From: a virus
DNA: 64,000 bases
Reading direction: 5' to 3' (one strand)
Virus record (IMG/VR): IMGVR_UViG_3300024264_000006
Location: 83,637-147,636 of that record
Below, piece by piece: positions 2,724 to 49,694 of this stretch. Position numbers and translations under genes: made by a program. The notes under the pieces were generated by a model. The model was not told the DNA's origin, did not search any database, and worked only from the letters and a program-made list of their open reading frames with translations. Position 1 is the stretch's first letter. Every line of letters begins with the position of its first letter.

Positions 2724-2942
2724 TTAAAGTTTTTTTCTACGGACTAGTTCTTTCTTGATCTTTTGTCGTAGTTTAGGGGTGGTACTGGACTTATCCATGG
2801 CTTCAACCAACTCCGGAGTAGGAGTAGATTTCATGTACTTGTGCACTATAGAGACCTTTCCGGTCTCCCTATTGCGTATTACATGTGATTGTCCGAATTT
2901 TACTGGCATCTTATTATACGAATTTTGCGAGGGTTTCAACAA
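2724..2942 (-). CDS. Small basic hypothetical protein
   Basis: ORF; true start probably MPVKF near 2909. Confidence 0.65.
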   Translation of the reverse strand: MLKPSQNSYNKMPVKFGQSHVIRNRETGKVSIVHKYMKSTPTPELVEAMDKSSTTPKLRQKIKKELVRRKKL

Positions 2943-3171
2943 CCTTTACTAGTTTTTGTTTCATCTGAGTAATCTCTGCTTCTTCCCAGATCAGTTCTGT
3001 GGTGCGAATATCACCAAGTAGTTCGATGTATTCTTCTTCTGTCAGTTCACCTTCACGTCTAGCATGGACTATATCGATGATGACCTCTCCCAGTCTACTG
3101 GCTTCCCAGTCTTCATCTTCGTTATCGATAATCTGTTGAAGAATCCTTTCTTCTTCTGTATATCTAGTCAT
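2914..3171 (-). CDS. Small acidic hypothetical protein
   Basis: Translationally coupled to the upstream lipoprotein gene. Confidence 0.7.
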   Translation of the reverse strand: MTRYTEEERILQQIIDNEDEDWEASRLGEVIIDIVHARREGELTEEEYIELLGDIRTTELIWEEAEITQMKQKLVKVVETLAKFV

Positions 3172-3569
3172 TAGTCATATCTCCCCATAACCGTTAACGC
3201 AATTGCTTCTGATTGTTGCAACAATACACCTTGTTTTAAGGCACAGTATCTTTGCGATACAGTTTCCTTTTCATACATGGGGTCTAGGGTTAAAGACATC
3301 TTATCCAATAGGTATTCAATGTCACTAGTACCCTTAGTTTCCACATAAGTACTTAACCAACCATGCTTCTTATAGATGTCATCTATCATGTGTGTGATTA
3401 ACACCGGATCAAGTTCACAATCTAACCAGATGATTGCCCATCTTAAATCGGTTACACCAGCTGCCTCATTGTCATCCCATTTGGATGGCAACAAACTACA
3501 ACCAGTAATCATTATTCCCAACAGGGAAGCTGTAATTATACTATAAAATTTTCTCACTGTCAACCTCAA
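3171..3569 (-). CDS. Putative lipoprotein
   Basis: Basic N-terminus, hydrophobic stretch, lipobox ITG-C; two further Cys. Confidence 0.7.
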   Translation of the reverse strand: MRLTVRKFYSIITASLLGIMITGCSLLPSKWDDNEAAGVTDLRWAIIWLDCELDPVLITHMIDDIYKKHGWLSTYVETKGTSDIEYLLDKMSLTLDPMYEKETVSQRYCALKQGVLLQQSEAIALTVMGRYD

Positions 3570-4045
3570 TCTGATAATGGATTATCTAAAGCTTTCTGCA
3601 ATTTCTCGTCTAGTTTTTCTTCTAGTTCTTCTATCTCTTTTCGCAGTTTAGCATATGCTTGATCATAATCATCGGATAACTTATCTCGACGATTCTCAAA
3701 TCTTTCTTCTGCATTATCTATACTATTCCTAACGTCCACTTCTACGGCCCGTATTTTATCGTCTATACGATCCACGTTCTTTTCAAGAGAAAGTAAATCA
3801 TCACGAAGACCCGACTTGATATCACGAGTATAGTCAATAGCTTCATCTAGTTTAGTTTCGATAATTGCATTACGGGACTCAATCTGATCCACATCAATGT
3901 TTTGAACAACCTCTCTCATGTCCATGTAGTCCTTATAGAACTCAAAACCAGCCCAAGATGCTCCGCCCAATGTAGACAGTGCGGTAAGTAAGATTGCCAT
4001 CTTACCCCCAGTAAATTTCATTCCCGCAAATTCTACCTCTGCCAT
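3566..4045 (-). CDS. Membrane-anchored coiled-coil protein
   Basis: One N-terminal TM segment followed by a long heptad-like helical region ending ALDNPLSD. Confidence 0.75.
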   Translation of the reverse strand: MAEVEFAGMKFTGGKMAILLTALSTLGGASWAGFEFYKDYMDMREVVQNIDVDQIESRNAIIETKLDEAIDYTRDIKSGLRDDLLSLEKNVDRIDDKIRAVEVDVRNSIDNAEERFENRRDKLSDDYDQAYAKLRKEIEELEEKLDEKLQKALDNPLSD

Positions 4046-4047
4046 TC

Positions 4048-4503
4048 TTACTCCTCAAATTTTAGTTTACGTAGGTTGACGATCTCTTGTTGCAACCTCA
4101 TAACTTCTAATCTTTTTTTCTCTAATTCTAATTTGTATAGTGCGTTGCAGTTTAACCTTTCTTTAGGTGCACCGATTGGCACTGTGATCCTTGCGTATAC
4201 ACCAACGTTACGCATAAAGTCATCATTGTAAGGTAATAGTACTCTATTTGGATCGACAAAACTGCCGTTCCCCGTCCTGTATTGATCCCACGGATCGTTT
4301 TGATCCATGATACCGACAACACCAAACTCTAAGTTCGTGGATGAACCGATAGCTGCTGAACACTCAACGTCACCCGCTCTCACTCTATCAGACTGAAAAC
4401 TCTGTGGCGACTGTGGTATTGCCAAGTTCAAAGAACCAGACTGTGCGTTCACCGAGCTCGACCAGAAACTTATTACCAAAACAAATAATAATATTAATCT
4501 CAT
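4048..4503 (-). CDS. Exported protein with amphipathic beta-strands and a C-terminal coiled coil
   Basis: Signal peptide (VNA|Q); strands NLEFGVVG and VGVYARITVP; Cys pair; start ATG 4503 abuts the upstream stop. Confidence 0.7.
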   Translation of the reverse strand: MRLILLFVLVISFWSSSVNAQSGSLNLAIPQSPQSFQSDRVRAGDVECSAAIGSSTNLEFGVVGIMDQNDPWDQYRTGNGSFVDPNRVLLPYNDDFMRNVGVYARITVPIGAPKERLNCNALYKLELEKKRLEVMRLQQEIVNLRKLKFEE

Positions 4504-4874
4504 TTTATTTTCGAACATATCCTTGAAGCGATTAAGGCCTTTGTGCCAGAATCTTTCACTAATTTAGATTTTGAACAGATATATGTTACTTTTTCACTGT
4601 CCGACTTTCGGACGTAAATGTTAACTGACGCCCTACTCAAATACTTTACTCTTATAATTCTCTGTGCAACCGCAAAGGGGACTGGATTCCAATCACTGTC
4701 CCATACGTTTATCTGGTAGTATTCAACATCTGGTCTACCATTCCACAGTTCCATCTCAGTAACCAAAACCGATTCGACATATGATTGAGTTAGTTCTGGA
4801 TAAGTGGGTGTCCACTCGTGGGCCTTCAGACCCACTGAGCAGAACACCAAACTTAGTATCATAACAAAGCGCAT
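4500..4874 (-). CDS. Exported beta-rich protein, possibly fimbrial-chaperone-like
   Basis: Signal peptide (LKA|H), alternating beta pattern, C-terminal Cys pair; function is inference. Confidence 0.55.
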   Translation of the reverse strand: MRFVMILSLVFCSVGLKAHEWTPTYPELTQSYVESVLVTEMELWNGRPDVEYYQINVWDSDWNPVPFAVAQRIIRVKYLSRASVNIYVRKSDSEKVTYICSKSKLVKDSGTKALIASRICSKIK

Positions 4875-4878
4875 ACTA

Positions 4879-5376
4879 TTATATAGCGATACACTCAGCT
4901 GTTACCACTGAACGATATTGTCCAGCAGGAAAAGCCTTGTCGTAACCATAATTAGCAGTCGATGCGACCTTAAACCATGTGCTTCCAGCAATAGTCAAGT
5001 CGATCTCTGTTATGTTATTGTACTCAATTTTGTTGTTGTCATAAGCAGACATAGCAGCATCAGATACTTCTGATACAGTTACATCACCAACCCAAACCAC
5101 CACATCATTAAGAGTAGGACTCTCTGTGAATTCATTCGGTCTTGAGATGACAGCCTTGTAGTAATCCGCTTGGATTACGTCATACCTAACGACAGGCGGT
5201 ACACCACCGTTCGACAGATTAGTTGTCAACGTATTTGGCGTTGGGTTACCATAGACACCTTGAGTGTCTGTTGTTACTACACACTTAGAATCTACAGAGC
5301 CCATAATTGGGACTTCGGCAGCTACTGCGTTAGACAACGTAAAAATGCCTAGTAAGGCAAATATATTTTTAAACAT
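4879..5376 (-). CDS. Exported fimbrial/pilin-like beta-sandwich protein
   Basis: Signal peptide; N-terminal IMGSVDSKC and C-terminal PAGQYRSVVTAEC resemble chaperone-usher/Csu pilin ends. Confidence 0.55.
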   Translation of the reverse strand: MFKNIFALLGIFTLSNAVAAEVPIMGSVDSKCVVTTDTQGVYGNPTPNTLTTNLSNGGVPPVVRYDVIQADYYKAVISRPNEFTESPTLNDVVVWVGDVTVSEVSDAAMSAYDNNKIEYNNITEIDLTIAGSTWFKVASTANYGYDKAFPAGQYRSVVTAECIAI

Positions 5377-5403
5377 TATAGTGCTCCTATGTAAAATGTT
5401 TTT

Positions 5404-6270
5404 TTATTTTTTATACTGTAAATTTACTAACTCTTTATGTAATAACTGTTGAGCGAGATTTTGTCTCCGTAACAATCGATTGTCTGGAAGACTTGCATCT
5501 TTCAAAACAACAGTTTCTTCATATTTCGAGTCCGGAAGAACTTCAAAGTAACTAACCGGAATATAATTCTGAGCCATCAATGACGTATGTTTACGTAATG
5601 ATTCAGAGGCCAACAACGAGTTGTTAACCGTACCCAAAATCGCCTCCAGTCTCATATCTTCTATCTCTTCTTCCGACATCATTTTTTGACGATCTTTATC
5701 TTCTTCATCCTCATCACGTGGTTCCCAATCCTTTTCTAGTTCTCTCTGAACCCACTGATCGTTAAGTGGATCATAAAACCCTATCTCCGGAATTACCGGA
5801 ACAGGTGGGATATAGTCGGGACAAGATGGGTCTGTAGTAACACCAAAACACGTATCGTAAGAATAATTGTACAATACGGTGGCGCCCTCTACCGAACCTT
5901 TCCCTTCTACTTCAATCGACCCATCTCCCCAAAACTCTAATGGTATTGTATTGACGGGTACGAGTTTATTGATTGAGTTGCCAGGCAACCCACTCCAGTC
6001 ATCTGCGTTCCTAAAGATATAACCACCATTGATGGCATCTTCGTTTTGAACATAAACAACCATATCATCTTCTGCATTCTTTACCGTAGTATAACGGTAT
6101 ACGATTCCATTGACAGTCAATCCCGCATTCTGAGGCAGGATATTAGTCATAACCCAATTGAGGCCAAATGCGGCCGCATTGGGTGAAGTTTCGTTTACTT
6201 GTTCAGAGTAAGAGTAGGACGAGCAAACTAGCAATGCCAGCGCCGCCCAATAGTGTCTTGTTTTGGTCAC
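5404..6270 (-). CDS. Exported protein (beta domain, Cys/Pro linker, acidic helical tail)
   Basis: GTG start with GGAG; signal peptide; overlaps the upstream gene by 68 nt. Confidence 0.7.
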   Translation of the reverse strand: MTKTRHYWAALALLVCSSYSYSEQVNETSPNAAAFGLNWVMTNILPQNAGLTVNGIVYRYTTVKNAEDDMVVYVQNEDAINGGYIFRNADDWSGLPGNSINKLVPVNTIPLEFWGDGSIEVEGKGSVEGATVLYNYSYDTCFGVTTDPSCPDYIPPVPVIPEIGFYDPLNDQWVQRELEKDWEPRDEDEEDKDRQKMMSEEEIEDMRLEAILGTVNNSLLASESLRKHTSLMAQNYIPVSYFEVLPDSKYEETVVLKDASLPDNRLLRRQNLAQQLLHKELVNLQYKK

Positions 6271-6808
6271 TCATCGGCTCCTTTTTCTTATCTTCATCTT
6301 CAACGGGTAAATCATCAGTATTTACTGACCATGCAGCTTTAGCTTCCTCACCTATTAGTCCATCAAACGGACAAGGTGTACCAGCATTCATCATAGCGTC
6401 AAAAACCCGTGGGTCTTGACACATAAGAGATACTGCTGCAACTTTCATACCCATATCGAATAATGTCTTAGAATTTTTTAATCTTTCACAGTTATCGTCT
6501 GTTACTTGTGTGCCTGTTGAGATACCTAGTATCTGAGTTTGGATTGCACCCGCAACACCAAACGTACATAGGTCTGAGTTGGAGGTATTGATCGTAGGAG
6601 AGATCGCTGAGGCCGGAGGCGACTTCAACGTAGTAGTAGTATTACCATTAGTGGTAACGGTAGACTCAGTTATGATAGGTTCGATTGCAGGCGTTACGGG
6701 TTCATCCGTACCCCCGCCACCATCTTGAGCGTTAGCGTCTTCTGCCAGTAATCCGAAAGAGAACACACAAAGTGCAATCAAGGACAATTTTCTTATTGCG
6801 TTATACAT
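6203..6808 (-). CDS. Exported Cys-rich protein with C-terminal hydrophobic anchor
   Basis: Signal peptide; Gly-rich hairpin GVAGAIQTQILGISTG; four Cys in the core; C-terminal LLGGAGIASLLVLLLL. Confidence 0.75.
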   Translation of the reverse strand: MYNAIRKLSLIALCVFSFGLLAEDANAQDGGGGTDEPVTPAIEPIITESTVTTNGNTTTTLKSPPASAISPTINTSNSDLCTFGVAGAIQTQILGISTGTQVTDDNCERLKNSKTLFDMGMKVAAVSLMCQDPRVFDAMMNAGTPCPFDGLIGEEAKAAWSVNTDDLPVEDEDKKKEPMSDQNKTLLGGAGIASLLVLLLL

Positions 6809-6841
6809 ATTATACCCATTGAAAATAATTCATATCAAGGG

Positions 6842-6849
6842 TATTTATA
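6842..6849 (-). promoter_or_regulatory. T4-type late promoter TATAAATA driving the exported-protein operon
   Basis: Exact gp55 consensus about 33 nt upstream of ATG 6808; TTGACG 18 nt upstream lies within the palindrome GTCAATTAATTGAC (6869-6882). Confidence 0.8.
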
Positions 6850-6890
6850 CTTGAAGTTATCTCAAAGCGTCAATTAATTGACAGCTAAAA

Positions 6891-46881: not shown

Positions 46882-47541
46882 TTATAATTGCGATTTTATT
46901 AACGAGAGGAAATTTTTAAACTCTCGAATTTGCACTTCTGGACGAAATGCTTTCGGAGTAGTTTTAATTTCAGTCTCCATTTTCTCAATTACCTGAGGCT
47001 CTAAAATGCCGTTATTCCAGACCCAGTCTACACCTTCCATAATTCCATTAACGAAAGCTTCTGGTGCGCTAGGGTCTTGTACTATGTCAACAGTACTAAG
47101 AATAAAGTCGTCTTTAACGACCATGGCGCCATTTCGATTCTCAAGGCTACCCATACCACGAGTTGACACGCCTAGTTGAACACCGCCTTCTAGGAGACCT
47201 TTTACGATCTTACCCATTGGAGTATCCAATACTTGTGCCTTTCCTACCACATCATTTCCCTCAAACTTGAGGTCTGTGATGAGGTGTGAAACTTTGTCTA
47301 AGTTGACTGTCGGCCCTTCAGGGTGGTTTAGTTCCCCTACTGCCCGTCTCTTAGAAACTTGTTCTTGTACGTACTTACCTACCGCCCTTTCCATAATTGG
47401 TTTGGGGTAGATACGTCCGTTTCTGTTCTTTTTGTCGGCCTGTGCGAACACACCTTCAATGGTGTACTTCTTTTCACCATCTTCTTTTTTCTCTACGATG
47501 CATTGAACATCGTTTTCTAAGTATTCGCTTATCAGCTTCAT
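46882..47541 (-). CDS. gp21: Prohead protease (gp21)
   Basis: NRNGRIY, GELNHP, GVSTRGMGS, DPSAP. Confidence 0.96.
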   Translation of the reverse strand: MKLISEYLENDVQCIVEKKEDGEKKYTIEGVFAQADKKNRNGRIYPKPIMERAVGKYVQEQVSKRRAVGELNHPEGPTVNLDKVSHLITDLKFEGNDVVGKAQVLDTPMGKIVKGLLEGGVQLGVSTRGMGSLENRNGAMVVKDDFILSTVDIVQDPSAPEAFVNGIMEGVDWVWNNGILEPQVIEKMETEIKTTPKAFRPEVQIREFKNFLSLIKSQL

Positions 47542-47756
47542 CTTGCTAAATCCTTTAAAATAGCTTGTGCGCCTTTAACGGCGTCTTTTTCGGACTTGAA
47601 TGTGTCCAGCATATCTCCATCGACATATGCGGTATACCCCTTACTGTCTTTCCAGACTTCGTAAGGGATTTTCTTTCCACGGACTTTCTCTGTTCCGGAA
47701 TGAACCTTTTTCCCTTGAGGTTTTTTTGCCTCTCTGATTTGTTCAAACGTTTTCAA
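47538..47756 (-). CDS. Small prohead-region protein (gp68 position)
   Basis: TTG start with GGAG; late promoter upstream. Confidence 0.65.
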   Translation of the reverse strand: MKTFEQIREAKKPQGKKVHSGTEKVRGKKIPYEVWKDSKGYTAYVDGDMLDTFKSEKDAVKGAQAILKDLAR

Positions 47757-47781
47757 AGTAAGTTTTCTCCGTTGTACCTAT

Positions 47782-47789
47782 TATTTATA
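47782..47789 (-). promoter_or_regulatory. Late promoter TATAAATA
   Basis: Exact consensus; hairpin ATGAAGTC/GACTTCAT (47826-47846) just upstream. Confidence 0.8.
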
Positions 47790-47850
47790 CAATTTATGTT
47801 TTTAAAAACAAATGTTTGTGACTTTATGAAGTCTCCCCGACTTCATCATC

Positions 47851-48180
47851 CTATGAAACTTCTTCCACTTCGTCTTCAACCACATCTTCGGTTGTTTCAT
47901 CATCATCAATACCTTCCTCGTCGATCTCATCATCGACCATATTTTCTATTTCTTGGTCAGTGAGGTCTTCGTCTTCAATGTCGCCATCCGCATCATTAAA
48001 GATGGAACCAGCCACTGCCACTTTCTCTGCATCCAATCTGGCTTGCAGTTTGTCGTTCAACATAGAATTGAATGTGGTCTGTGCAGCATTATAATTCTGC
48101 TGTTGCAAAGCATCAATGAACTGTTGTGCTTGACCGATTTCTTCTTGTTGTTCGACTTCTTGATTTTCTACTTCACTCAT
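47851..48180 (-). CDS. Acidic prohead core protein (gp67-like)
   Basis: Highly acidic; directly after the portal gene. Confidence 0.7.
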   Translation of the reverse strand: MSEVENQEVEQQEEIGQAQQFIDALQQQNYNAAQTTFNSMLNDKLQARLDAEKVAVAGSIFNDADGDIEDEDLTDQEIENMVDDEIDEEGIDDDETTEDVVEDEVEEVS

Positions 48181-48182
48181 GA

Positions 48183-49694
48183 TTATACTCCTAAATCATC
48201 TTCGTCATCGTCACCCTTTGAATTCTCAGACTCGACTTCATCTTTCATTTGATCGATGGATTCGTCTGACATCATCATGACGTTCTTCATTACCCACTCA
48301 CGTGAGAAATATTCACCAACATAATTAGTGATCCTATCCATTGTGTCCAGTCTCTCTCTTAAGAGTTCTGCGTTTTTAAGTTCAGTAAAGTGGTTGTCAC
48401 GAATAAAGTCAATGACGATATTGTTTTTCCACACTTCCCAATCATCCTCAGTAATAATACCTTTGAGGATTAGTTGCTTCTTGAGAATACCCAAGAACAA
48501 CATAGAGAATCTTCTACGCAGTCTGTCCACAAACTTTTGAAACTTAACTTCGTCTCGACTGATCTCTGTTGATCTACCAAGACTAAACTGAGCTTCTTGT
48601 TCCAGTCTATTTATTGGAACGTTAAGTGATCGATACAATCTCTTTTGGAAGTAGATAATATCATCAATCTGACCAAGGTTCTCACCGCCAGGCAGTGTAG
48701 AAATCTCAGTCCCTTTGCCACCTTCTCTACGAGGTAACCAAAAGTCTTCTAACATAGACATGTGTTTACGATCATCTTTGATCTGTCCAGTACTTGCATC
48801 ATAGACTAACTTGTTTCTATAACGAGTCATGATGTCTTTCATGTGTTGTTCAGCCTTACCAGTAGGTAAGTTACCAACATCTATGTAAAAAATTCTTCTC
48901 TCTGGTGCACGTGCAAGACGATAGATTACCAAAGAGTCTTCCATCATACGCAATTGGTTGATGGGTTTAATTGACTTGTGTAGGTAGGATATTACACGCT
49001 TTCTTTGTGCGTCTAACAATCCAGAAGTTACATACGAAACAGAATCAGTAGACATCTTGACGCCTGTTCTTGTTCCTTGTTTCTCTTGGAAAACATAAAA
49101 CTCGTTGACCTTATCAACGATCTTGGCGTCAGTCTTTGTATCTTTTTTGTATTTAACCTCTTTTACTTTACGAACCTTGGAGGCATCGATAGGACGAATT
49201 TCCTGAATACCAGCCTTCATATTAGATTCGTTTACTACGAGGTGGTGAACCAAACGTCCATCCACATACCATGACCTAAAGATGTCATGTGCGTTATCAT
49301 TGAAGTTCAACATCGAACAGATGTTATCAAACTCTTCAACAATAATCTTTTTAATCTTGTCGGACGCATCTACTTTGTCCAGACTAATTTCTACAGAGGA
49401 TTCTAAATCAGATGCACTGATAGACTCATTGATGATGTCTTCAACAGCTGCATCGACTTCAGGGTGTTCTGCAACACCACGATACTTCTTAATTAATTCT
49501 GCATTATCTTTTGCGCCATCACCTTCAATGTCAATAAATTGACCGAAGTGGGCCCCAGAGGCAGTAACGTACCCCGCACCATCTTCATCCGCTTTCGGAA
49601 CGATGGACGGTAATTTCTCAGGTTTCTTATCTTGATTCGCTCTTTTTATTTCGAATCCGAAAAGTTTAATGATGCTATTACTTTCTTCTGCCAT
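48183..49694 (-). CDS. gp20: Portal protein (gp20)
   Basis: YRLARAPERRIFYIDVGNLP, EDFWLPRREGGKGTEI. Confidence 0.97.
   Translation of the reverse strand: MAEESNSIIKLFGFEIKRANQDKKPEKLPSIVPKADEDGAGYVTASGAHFGQFIDIEGDGAKDNAELIKKYRGVAEHPEVDAAVEDIINESISASDLESSVEISLDKVDASDKIKKIIVEEFDNICSMLNFNDNAHDIFRSWYVDGRLVHHLVVNESNMKAGIQEIRPIDASKVRKVKEVKYKKDTKTDAKIVDKVNEFYVFQEKQGTRTGVKMSTDSVSYVTSGLLDAQRKRVISYLHKSIKPINQLRMMEDSLVIYRLARAPERRIFYIDVGNLPTGKAEQHMKDIMTRYRNKLVYDASTGQIKDDRKHMSMLEDFWLPRREGGKGTEISTLPGGENLGQIDDIIYFQKRLYRSLNVPINRLEQEAQFSLGRSTEISRDEVKFQKFVDRLRRRFSMLFLGILKKQLILKGIITEDDWEVWKNNIVIDFIRDNHFTELKNAELLRERLDTMDRITNYVGEYFSREWVMKNVMMMSDESIDQMKDEVESENSKGDDDEDDLGV

Follow-up and report, generated by a model that had tools for sequence, protein, structure and literature searches.

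The stretch of DNA analysed here (the window, 64,000 nucleotides) is the right-hand 64 kb of the 147.6-kb IMG/VR viral contig IMGVR_UViG_3300024264_000006, which has a CheckV completeness of 87%, and it carries a cassette of eight open reading frames (ORFs), g1 to g8, all on the minus strand and spanning positions 2914-6808 (Table 1). We tentatively propose, with a little less than even confidence, that this cassette encodes an usher-independent chaperone-subunit device that acts late in infection, in the envelope of the Gram-negative host, with the three genes g3, g4 and g5 (the triad) as its core. Our best guess is that the device builds or anchors an immunoglobulin-like (Ig-like) polymer in that envelope. 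The original prediction had interpreted the locus as an envelope apparatus of pilin-like and chaperone-like proteins. The predicted chaperone fold of g4, the Ig-like fold of g3 and the conserved clustering of the genes agree with this interpretation, but membership of the two proteins in the PapD_N, Fimbrial and SCPU sequence families did not hold.

The product of g4 was previously noted as a small beta protein in the chaperone position. Its AlphaFold2 model (pLDDT 85) is a PapD-like Ig domain. In a Foldseek search, the top matches were nearly all PapD, DraB, Caf1M, FimC, FaeE, SfaE and SafB (E values of 4.5e-4 and weaker), and every one of the eight matches at E<=1e-3 was a chaperone of the chaperone-usher type. 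An exhaustive VIA-align comparison gave FimC (Z 8.9, rmsd 2.7, 94 aligned residues), SafB (8.6), YadV (8.4), FaeE (8.3), PapD (8.0) and CsuC (7.5), together with CfaA and CupB2, and all of these alignments map to the N-terminal domain of the chaperones (residues ~6-125). ESM Atlas had provided a weak lead from g4 to PapD_N (0.83), later in line with the predicted fold; it returned nothing for g5 and held no stored structure for either g4 or g5. A fold search of g4 against BFVD matched only phage proteins without names.

At the sequence level, searches of the PDB sequences with profiles of the g1, g3, g4 and g5 alignments returned nothing significant. In a broad profile of the g4 family (A9), only N45, C100 and C120 are invariant, and the ten best PDB matches of this profile include Caf1M (four entries), SafB and DraB, all of them below threshold (E 0.7-2). 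These alignments are in register: N45 coincides with the conserved Asn of the chaperones' B1 strand, and C100 with the Cys that Caf1M and SafB have in strand F1. C100 and C120, a predicted Cys pair, are placed in the last two strands of the g4 model, a position like that in the FGL chaperones. A disulfide in the F1-G1 loop occurs only in FGL chaperones, where it is required for subunit binding (PMC4133393). A distant kinship of g4 with the FGL chaperones would be coherent with this pattern but is statistically weak.

The first residue of mature g4 is a histidine, H19 (4818-4820), which is invariant within an HE(W/F/M)TPTYP motif in 17 of 17 T4-like relatives. We considered this N-terminal His (HEWTPTYP) as a general copper “histidine brace” and rejected the idea because the T5-like and bacterial g4 homologues lack a His of this type. 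The motif may instead be a clade-specific feature for binding a metal or the subunit.

The neighbouring gene g3 encodes the putative subunit. Its AlphaFold2 model (pLDDT 78) is an Ig-like sandwich in which residues 19-29 are unstructured; the N-terminal 11 residues are conserved, yet unstructured in this monomer model. The family has an N-terminal strand of the type VxFxGxVxSxC and a C-terminal strand aGxYxxxVTxxC, and C32 and C162 are invariant throughout. The best Foldseek matches are weak (E 2e-3 to 3e-2) and include CfaB, CsuA/B, Caf1 and the pilin domain of PapG. The prediction that the termini of g3 make it similar to chaperone-usher/Csu pilins stands in part: the Ig-like sandwich, the pilin-like termini and the presence of chaperone-usher pilins among the weak fold matches support it, whereas membership in the Fimbrial or SCPU sequence families failed. 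A profile of the g3 family found its best PDB match, below threshold and helped by the signal peptide, in chain a of entry 10ss (E 0.016). This protein of 179 amino acids, present in 14 chains, is deposited as “Ferrous iron transporter B” and has an N-terminus resembling that of a fimbrial subunit (ADGTITFNGKVTDKTCTI); the deposited name may be wrong.

Several results weigh against a chaperone-subunit relationship between g4 and g3. Pfam at E<=1 gave no match for g3, g4, the g4 homologue pVp-1_0078 of phage pVp-1 or the homologue from Aminobacter, and neither NCBIfam nor PHROGs returned anything for g3 or g4. Against a reference alignment of 11 PapD_N domains from E. coli K-12, the phage, bacterial and merged g4 families reached hhalign probabilities of only 0.3-2.8%, and on this result g4 was rejected as a member of PF00345 by sequence. 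The g3 family scored at most 3.5% against 24 SCPU domains from sampled Pseudomonadota, equal to the controls and with only the last strand (aG.Y.dt.tVT) aligned, so that g3 was likewise rejected as a member of the SCPU/Csu family. In the VIA-align comparison g3 behaves as a generic Ig domain (Z <=7.6) whose best matches are MSCRAMM and Gram-positive pilin domains, and for g4 the MSP domains score like the chaperones and the Ig domain of the glycosidase CsxA scores best (Z 9.9). C32 and C162 staple the first to the last strand of g3, which may leave it a complete Ig fold without an acceptor groove. Mature g4 comprises ~105 amino acids and ends at the last strand of its single domain; a second, C-terminal chaperone domain is absent from g4 and from all its homologues, which in phages and bacteria measure 115-135 amino acids. 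In the classical chaperones, basic residues anchor the C-terminus of the subunit (R8/K112 in PapD, R20 in Caf1M). The g4 family has no family-wide invariant Arg or Lys, R47 being invariant in the T4-like clade only, and with an unreliable residue-level alignment such an anchoring pair is either missing or not identifiable.

These observations could mean that the fold likeness is convergent or generic, and that g3 and g4 are two stable Ig-like domains of the periplasm, such as modules for binding or inhibitors of an enzyme, in which case the triad would have an unrelated role in the envelope. The non-significant profile-profile tests against PapD_N and SCPU, the equally good scores of MSP and glycosidase domains and the generic matches of g3 all agree with such an explanation. 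We nevertheless judge it decidedly unlikely: for g4, Foldseek and VIA-align independently rank chaperone-usher chaperones first or close to first, the sequence matches below threshold again fall on FGL chaperones and have a correct register that covers the invariant Asn and Cys, and the adjacent gene, with its pilin-type termini, keeps its pairing with g4 from Alphaproteobacteria to phages. With g4 predicted to be PapD-like and g3 an Ig-like sandwich whose weak best Foldseek matches include chaperone-usher pilins, the folds do not contradict the original prediction.

The third member of the triad, g5, would connect the cassette with the cell wall. Two relatives of g5 (P0191 and P0243) are fused C-terminally to an OmpA_C domain (PF00691, 1.5e-25), and one OmpA_C-fused relative, encoded on a contig of 1.16 Mb, bears the annotation “OmpA family protein” in Vibrio pectenicida. 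From these fusions we conclude that the C-terminus of g5 would be periplasmic and located at the cell wall. Pfam detects no OmpA_C in the g5 of this window, and the fused forms have no close relative in the viral and metagenome scans. Every member of the family contains a coiled coil that could serve oligomerisation, and many of the bacterial ones also have Ala/Pro-rich tails. The N-terminal hairpin domain matches no family, and variability within the g5 family is highest in the loop at the hairpin tip.

The triad is not restricted to T4-like viruses. A tblastn search with g5 found 68 phage records, all of them T5-like Vibrio phages. In one of these, pVp-1, homologues of the whole triad stand in a row: 0077 corresponds to g3 (hhalign probability 90%; 3.5e-23 with merged hidden Markov models, HMMs), 0078 to g4 (94%; 2.7e-7) and 0079 to g5 (98%; 4.4e-25). 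A high-GC branch of the g5 family led to 61 loci in Hyphomicrobiales, among them Mesorhizobium, Aminobacter, Nitratireductor, Aureimonas and Fulvimarina. Here, a pilin-like gene is followed by a g4-like gene, a g5-like gene and a second pilin-like gene; this order is kept in at least 55 loci and is sometimes duplicated in tandem. Two to three tandem copies of the triad per locus were seen in Nitratireductor, Zhengella and relatives (L049, L053, L057, L094, L096 and L098). The bacterial operons stand alone, flanked by housekeeping genes, and all their proteins are annotated as “hypothetical protein”. Phage and bacterial families are homologous to each other according to hhalign (g3 97.5%, g4 97.0%, g5 99.6%). 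Among 401 sampled Pseudomonadota genomes, ten encode a member of the g5 family, and nine of these, including one low-GC genome, show the triad order; beyond the loci named by title, the bacterial range of the triad is only approximate. Judged by this distribution of homologues, the triad is older than the T4-like cassette.

An usher, which the original prediction had also found lacking, could not be detected in any of the systems that we searched. A search for the usher family PF00577 covered the 148-kb phage record, pVp-1 and the complete genomes of three triad-carrying bacteria; none gave a match, although the E. coli control did. The phage record contains no ORF of usher size, and none is situated within or next to the cassette.

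Based on these observations, we propose the following model for the usher-independent device. g3 would serve as the Ig-like subunit, exported by Sec, stapled by a disulfide and equipped with an N-terminal strand of the pilin type. g4 would represent half a chaperone, namely a subunit-binding N-domain of the PapD/Caf1M type with an FGL-like Cys pair, and could hold g3 in the periplasm by strand complementation (donor-strand binding). g5 would contribute an oligomerising hairpin and a coiled coil tied to the cell wall and outer membrane and may replace the usher as the site of g3 hand-over, polymerisation or anchoring. The products of g1, g2, g6 and g7, predicted to be anchored in the inner membrane, attached to the outer membrane as a lipoprotein, or exported, would form a phage-specific frame around the triad. 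The phage might benefit from a polymer that coats or cross-links the envelope or the lysis debris, or from a modulation of lysis or superinfection.

The closest comparison for this model is provided by the FGL chaperone-usher systems (Caf1M-Caf1 of Yersinia pestis, SafB-SafA and DraB-DraE). Like these, the cassette encodes a chaperone and a subunit that are both predicted to be Sec-exported, g4 is predicted to fold like a chaperone N-domain and has a Cys pair that closes a long loop between the last two strands, its sub-threshold profile alignments fall on these same proteins, and next to it lies the gene of an Ig-like subunit that has a strand at its N-terminus and whose C-terminal strand reads aGxY...V.V. 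Unlike the FGL systems, the cassette lacks an usher, g4 has one domain instead of two and no identifiable Arg/Lys anchors, sequence similarity is not significant, the disulfide of g3 links its first strand to its last, g5 is a third obligatory partner without a chaperone-usher counterpart, and the genes reside on lytic phages and are expressed late. The archaic (sigma, Csu-type) pili of the SCPU family (PF05229) share with g3 the Cys after the first strand and the last strand aG.Y.dt.tVT, and CsuA/B and CsuC are among the fold matches of g3 and g4, respectively. They differ in that g3 remains at or below 3.5% in hhalign and has no SCPU match in Pfam, and in that the cassette has neither a two-domain chaperone nor an usher. 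Curli export (the CsgG channel with CsgE/CsgF) also relies on small exported proteins encoded together, and by analogy an outer-membrane conduit formed by the short hairpins of g5 is conceivable; in the original prediction, the hairpin proteins g5 and g1 would oligomerise into such a pore to display a fimbria-like fibre. In contrast to curli, there is no match to any Pfam family, the curli families included, and the subunit g3 is Ig-like instead of an amyloid repeat. OmpA/Pal-type anchors and Braun lipoprotein resemble the g5 family through the C-terminal OmpA_C domain of some relatives, the coiled coil of all and the Ala/Pro-rich tails of many bacterial ones, whereas the g5 of this window has neither OmpA_C nor a lipid anchor.

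A different role is suggested by the neighbourhood of the triad in other phages. In pVp-1 the next genes after it encode a small lipoprotein, a T-type holin (PF11031, 1.6e-46) and an M15 endolysin, and in two relatives of the present virus (L029 and L038) the cassette is followed by a separate i-/o-spanin pair, in L038 also by a putative endolysin. This recurrent adjacency to lysis genes fits a lysis role equally well and thus weighs against the chaperone-subunit proposal. The cassette might then be an undescribed envelope-spanning lysis part that weakens the links between outer membrane and cell wall or tunes the last step of lysis, with g6, g7 and g5 acting like or alongside spanins and the Ig-like proteins serving as adaptors. 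Further points in its favour are the occurrence of g5 homologues in 68 phage records that all belong to Vibrio phages, the late expression indicated by the promoter, the OmpA_C fusions of g5 that point to the cell wall, and the layout of g6 and g7: as in two-component spanins (lambda Rz/Rz1, T4 PseT.3/PseT.2), a transmembrane (TM) protein with a coiled coil is followed by a lipoprotein with a 4-nt overlap.

Unlike in such systems, this phage has its own spanins elsewhere. At G000 47523-48318, outside the window and 39 kb from the cassette, we found a canonical overlapped i-/o-spanin pair consisting of a coiled-coil protein of 134 amino acids with an N-terminal TM segment and a lipoprotein of 143-148 amino acids. 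Because of this pair, and with L029 and L038 carrying both systems, g6/g7 was rejected as the spanin of this phage. Moreover, g7 is large for an o-spanin (mature form ~108 amino acids) and poor in Pro, and neither g7 nor the g6-g7 pair is conserved in all relatives. No lysis genes adjoin the cassette in this phage, and in bacteria the triad stands alone among housekeeping genes, a setting in which lysis would be an implausible function. A search for the T-type holin family PF11031 found no match in this phage and is uninformative, since the control genomes remained unmatched as well. On balance, we consider a function as lysis accessory unlikely.

Alternatively, the exported proteins might cover outer-membrane receptors or periplasmic entry factors and thereby exclude superinfecting phages or mask receptors, sparing late-arriving phages or progeny that meet debris. 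T5-like phages mask their own receptor late in infection by means of the lipoprotein Llp. A role analogous to that of T5 Llp or T4 Imm/Sp would agree with the predicted envelope location of all products, with the predicted Ig-like binding folds and with the variable tip loop of g5. Such proteins are, however, usually encoded by single small early or constitutive genes and not by a late multi-gene block with a chaperone-like member; the high conservation of g3 (mean column identity of 70% across diverged phages) is ill-suited to a receptor-specific binder; and the bacterial operons, which contain at least two pilin-like genes and are in places duplicated in tandem, suggest a built structure. 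We regard this explanation as very unlikely.

Returning to the chaperone-subunit device, we analysed whether the genes stay together in related viruses. A scan of IMG/VR with g3 yielded 42 loci (58-93% identity), which were compared by tblastn with all eight proteins. The clustering is well conserved: g1-g6 are colinear in 33 of the 42 contigs, the remaining nine end at contig ends, and none is rearranged. g6 is colinear with g1-g5 in every related contig that reaches that far, while g7 and g8 were recovered from some relatives only, but among these are the distant L022 and L038.

The genes around the triad have a distribution of their own. The Cys domain of g1 was also found in pelagiphages, roseophages, N4-like Achromobacter phages and RSP15 (tblastn down to 2e-34). 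The Pelagibacter podophage HTVC115P encodes, in the same order and after its tail-fibre genes, the g1-like gp54 (2e-34), the g2-like gp53 and the g6-like gp49 (tblastn 4e-19); the C-terminal motif of g2 resembles that of gp53 (hhalign 65%, E 6e-5). The triad g3-g4-g5 is absent from this g1-g2-g6 frame of HTVC115P. Because HTVC115P has the frame genes in order without the triad, the T4-like cassette seems to have arisen by insertion of the triad into a g1-g2-g6 frame. The view of the locus as one eight-gene unit holds with regard to the tight coupling and the shared late promoter, but the cassette is better read as two modules, one common to bacteria and T5-like phages (the triad) and the other shared with a pelagiphage (g1-g2-g6). 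In the INPHARED copy, no cultured phage matches the region at the DNA level except for a 211-nt stretch of g1. The g1 stretch 6337-6547 shows 75.7% DNA identity to HTVC115P, which is unusually close for phages so different and hints at a recent exchange of the g1 domain among marine phages. A very basic ORF of ~45 amino acids ending in ...KKYRGQGK (phrog_17967) precedes g6 in the T4-like relatives L031 (7019-7156) and L038 (9385-9531) and in the pelagiphage (L046, 6446-6583; gp50 of HTVC115P).

Table 1. Genes of the cassette and the late promoter preceding them.
Feature	Position	Strand	Description
g1	6203-6808	-	201 aa; signal peptide, Thr/Ser-rich linker, four-Cys domain with Gly-rich hairpin, acidic linker, C-terminal hydrophobic tail anchor; phrog_20531
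g2	5404-6270	-	288 aa; signal peptide, beta-rich N-domain with Cys pair, acidic linker, C-terminal LPDN...H..MV.LQY motif
g3	4879-5376	-	165 aa; exported Ig-like, pilin-like subunit (predicted)
g4	4500-4874	-	124 aa; exported single domain, predicted fold of the N-terminal domain of chaperone-usher chaperones
g5	4048-4503	-	151 aa; exported; disulfide-stapled beta-hairpin with variable tip loop, then C-terminal coiled coil; phrog_37374
g6	3566-4045	-	159 aa; N-terminal TM anchor and long periplasmic coiled coil
g7	3171-3569	-	132 aa; lipoprotein, lipobox ITGC, conserved CS..PS.WDDNE start
g8	2914-3171	-	85 aa; acidic, without export signal
Late promoter TATAAATA	6842-6849	-	T4-type; 34 nt before the g1 ATG

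The window has a GC content of ~41%, carries nearly all of its genes on the minus strand and contains T4-type replication and tail genes (DNA polymerase, DnaB-like helicase, SbcC-like nuclease and tail sheath). Within the cassette, the features first noticed in the sequence were recovered: a late promoter heads eight tightly coupled genes, seven of which encode a signal peptide, a lipobox or a membrane anchor (g8 being the exception), Gly-containing hairpins are present in g5 and g1, and the termini of g3 are pilin-like. Export signals were read directly from the translations; g1-g5 have Sec-type leaders with AxA-like cleavage sites. The paired Cys residues seen earlier in most of these proteins proved to be invariant in the alignments of relatives: C141/C150 in g2, C32/C162 in g3, C100/C120 in g4, C48/C119 in g5 and four Cys in g1. 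Neighbouring genes overlap by 1 or 4 nt or are separated by gaps of 2-27 nt, apart from g1 and g2, which overlap by ~68 nt. Here, the GTG start of g2 lies inside g1 in a different frame (6203-6270), so that the same DNA encodes the C-terminal membrane tail of g1 and the signal peptide of g2; relatives such as L004 keep this overlap. For g5, we place the start at 4503 and not at 4518, because relatives have a stop codon within the extension. Pfam, PHROGs and NCBIfam assign no named family to any of the eight proteins; g6 gave only coiled-coil noise, and the PHROGs of g1 and g5 have no assigned function.

The late promoter motif TATAAATA occurs six times in the window compared to 3.1 expected copies, a count that is not significant. 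All six copies are on the coding strand, some of them immediately upstream of the sheath and structural genes. The related contigs have 22 distinct and otherwise diverged upstream regions, and in 17 of them the motif precedes g1 by 11-67 nt. It is this conservation, and not the count of six, that is the real evidence for the predicted late promoter. A sigma-70-like promoter at 6838-6809 was rejected as the promoter of g1, with its -10 hexamer directly abutting the ATG. Between the late promoter and the stop codon of an upstream gene of 97 amino acids, we observed a palindrome, GTCAATTAATTGAC (6869-6882), which could be a terminator or an operator; similar or longer hairpins are present at the matching position in L002-L012 and L021 (e.g. 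GGGGTGTCAATTAAATGACACCCC in L021).

Our literature search found no paper describing the cassette, and none of its members has a family name. The conserved g3-g4-g5 triad, its stand-alone operons in bacteria, the OmpA_C fusions, the separate g1-g2-g6 frame and the separate spanin pair are additions of the present analysis. A more far-reaching version of the proposed device, which we regard as unlikely, is that the triad represents a third, usher-independent assembly route for donor-strand-linked Ig-like fibres in Gram-negative envelopes. In this case, g4 would deliver g3 to an oligomer of g5, with the disulfide-stapled hairpins forming an outer-membrane conduit and the coiled coil tying it to the cell wall. 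The product would be a thin surface fibre in bacteria, and the system would have been acquired by abundant marine T4-like phages and by T5-like vibriophages as a late coating for the dying cell or its debris.

The cassette is very common: the g3 family comprises 1070 clusters at 90% identity, all of them without a name and nearly all from aquatic metagenomes, and an exhaustive HMM search assigned 380 clusters at 50% identity to the g5 family. If the predicted models are correct, the subunit-binding half of a pilus chaperone can exist, and stay conserved, in the absence of both its second domain and an usher, and such a half-chaperone would challenge the textbook view of chaperone, usher and pilin as an indivisible unit. 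With virions being assembled in the cytoplasm, the late expression of these exported proteins in lytic phages points to an unrecognised step of envelope remodelling in the dying cell. The core triad is carried by cultured T5-like Vibrio phages and by strains of Mesorhizobium and Aminobacter, which makes the question directly testable.

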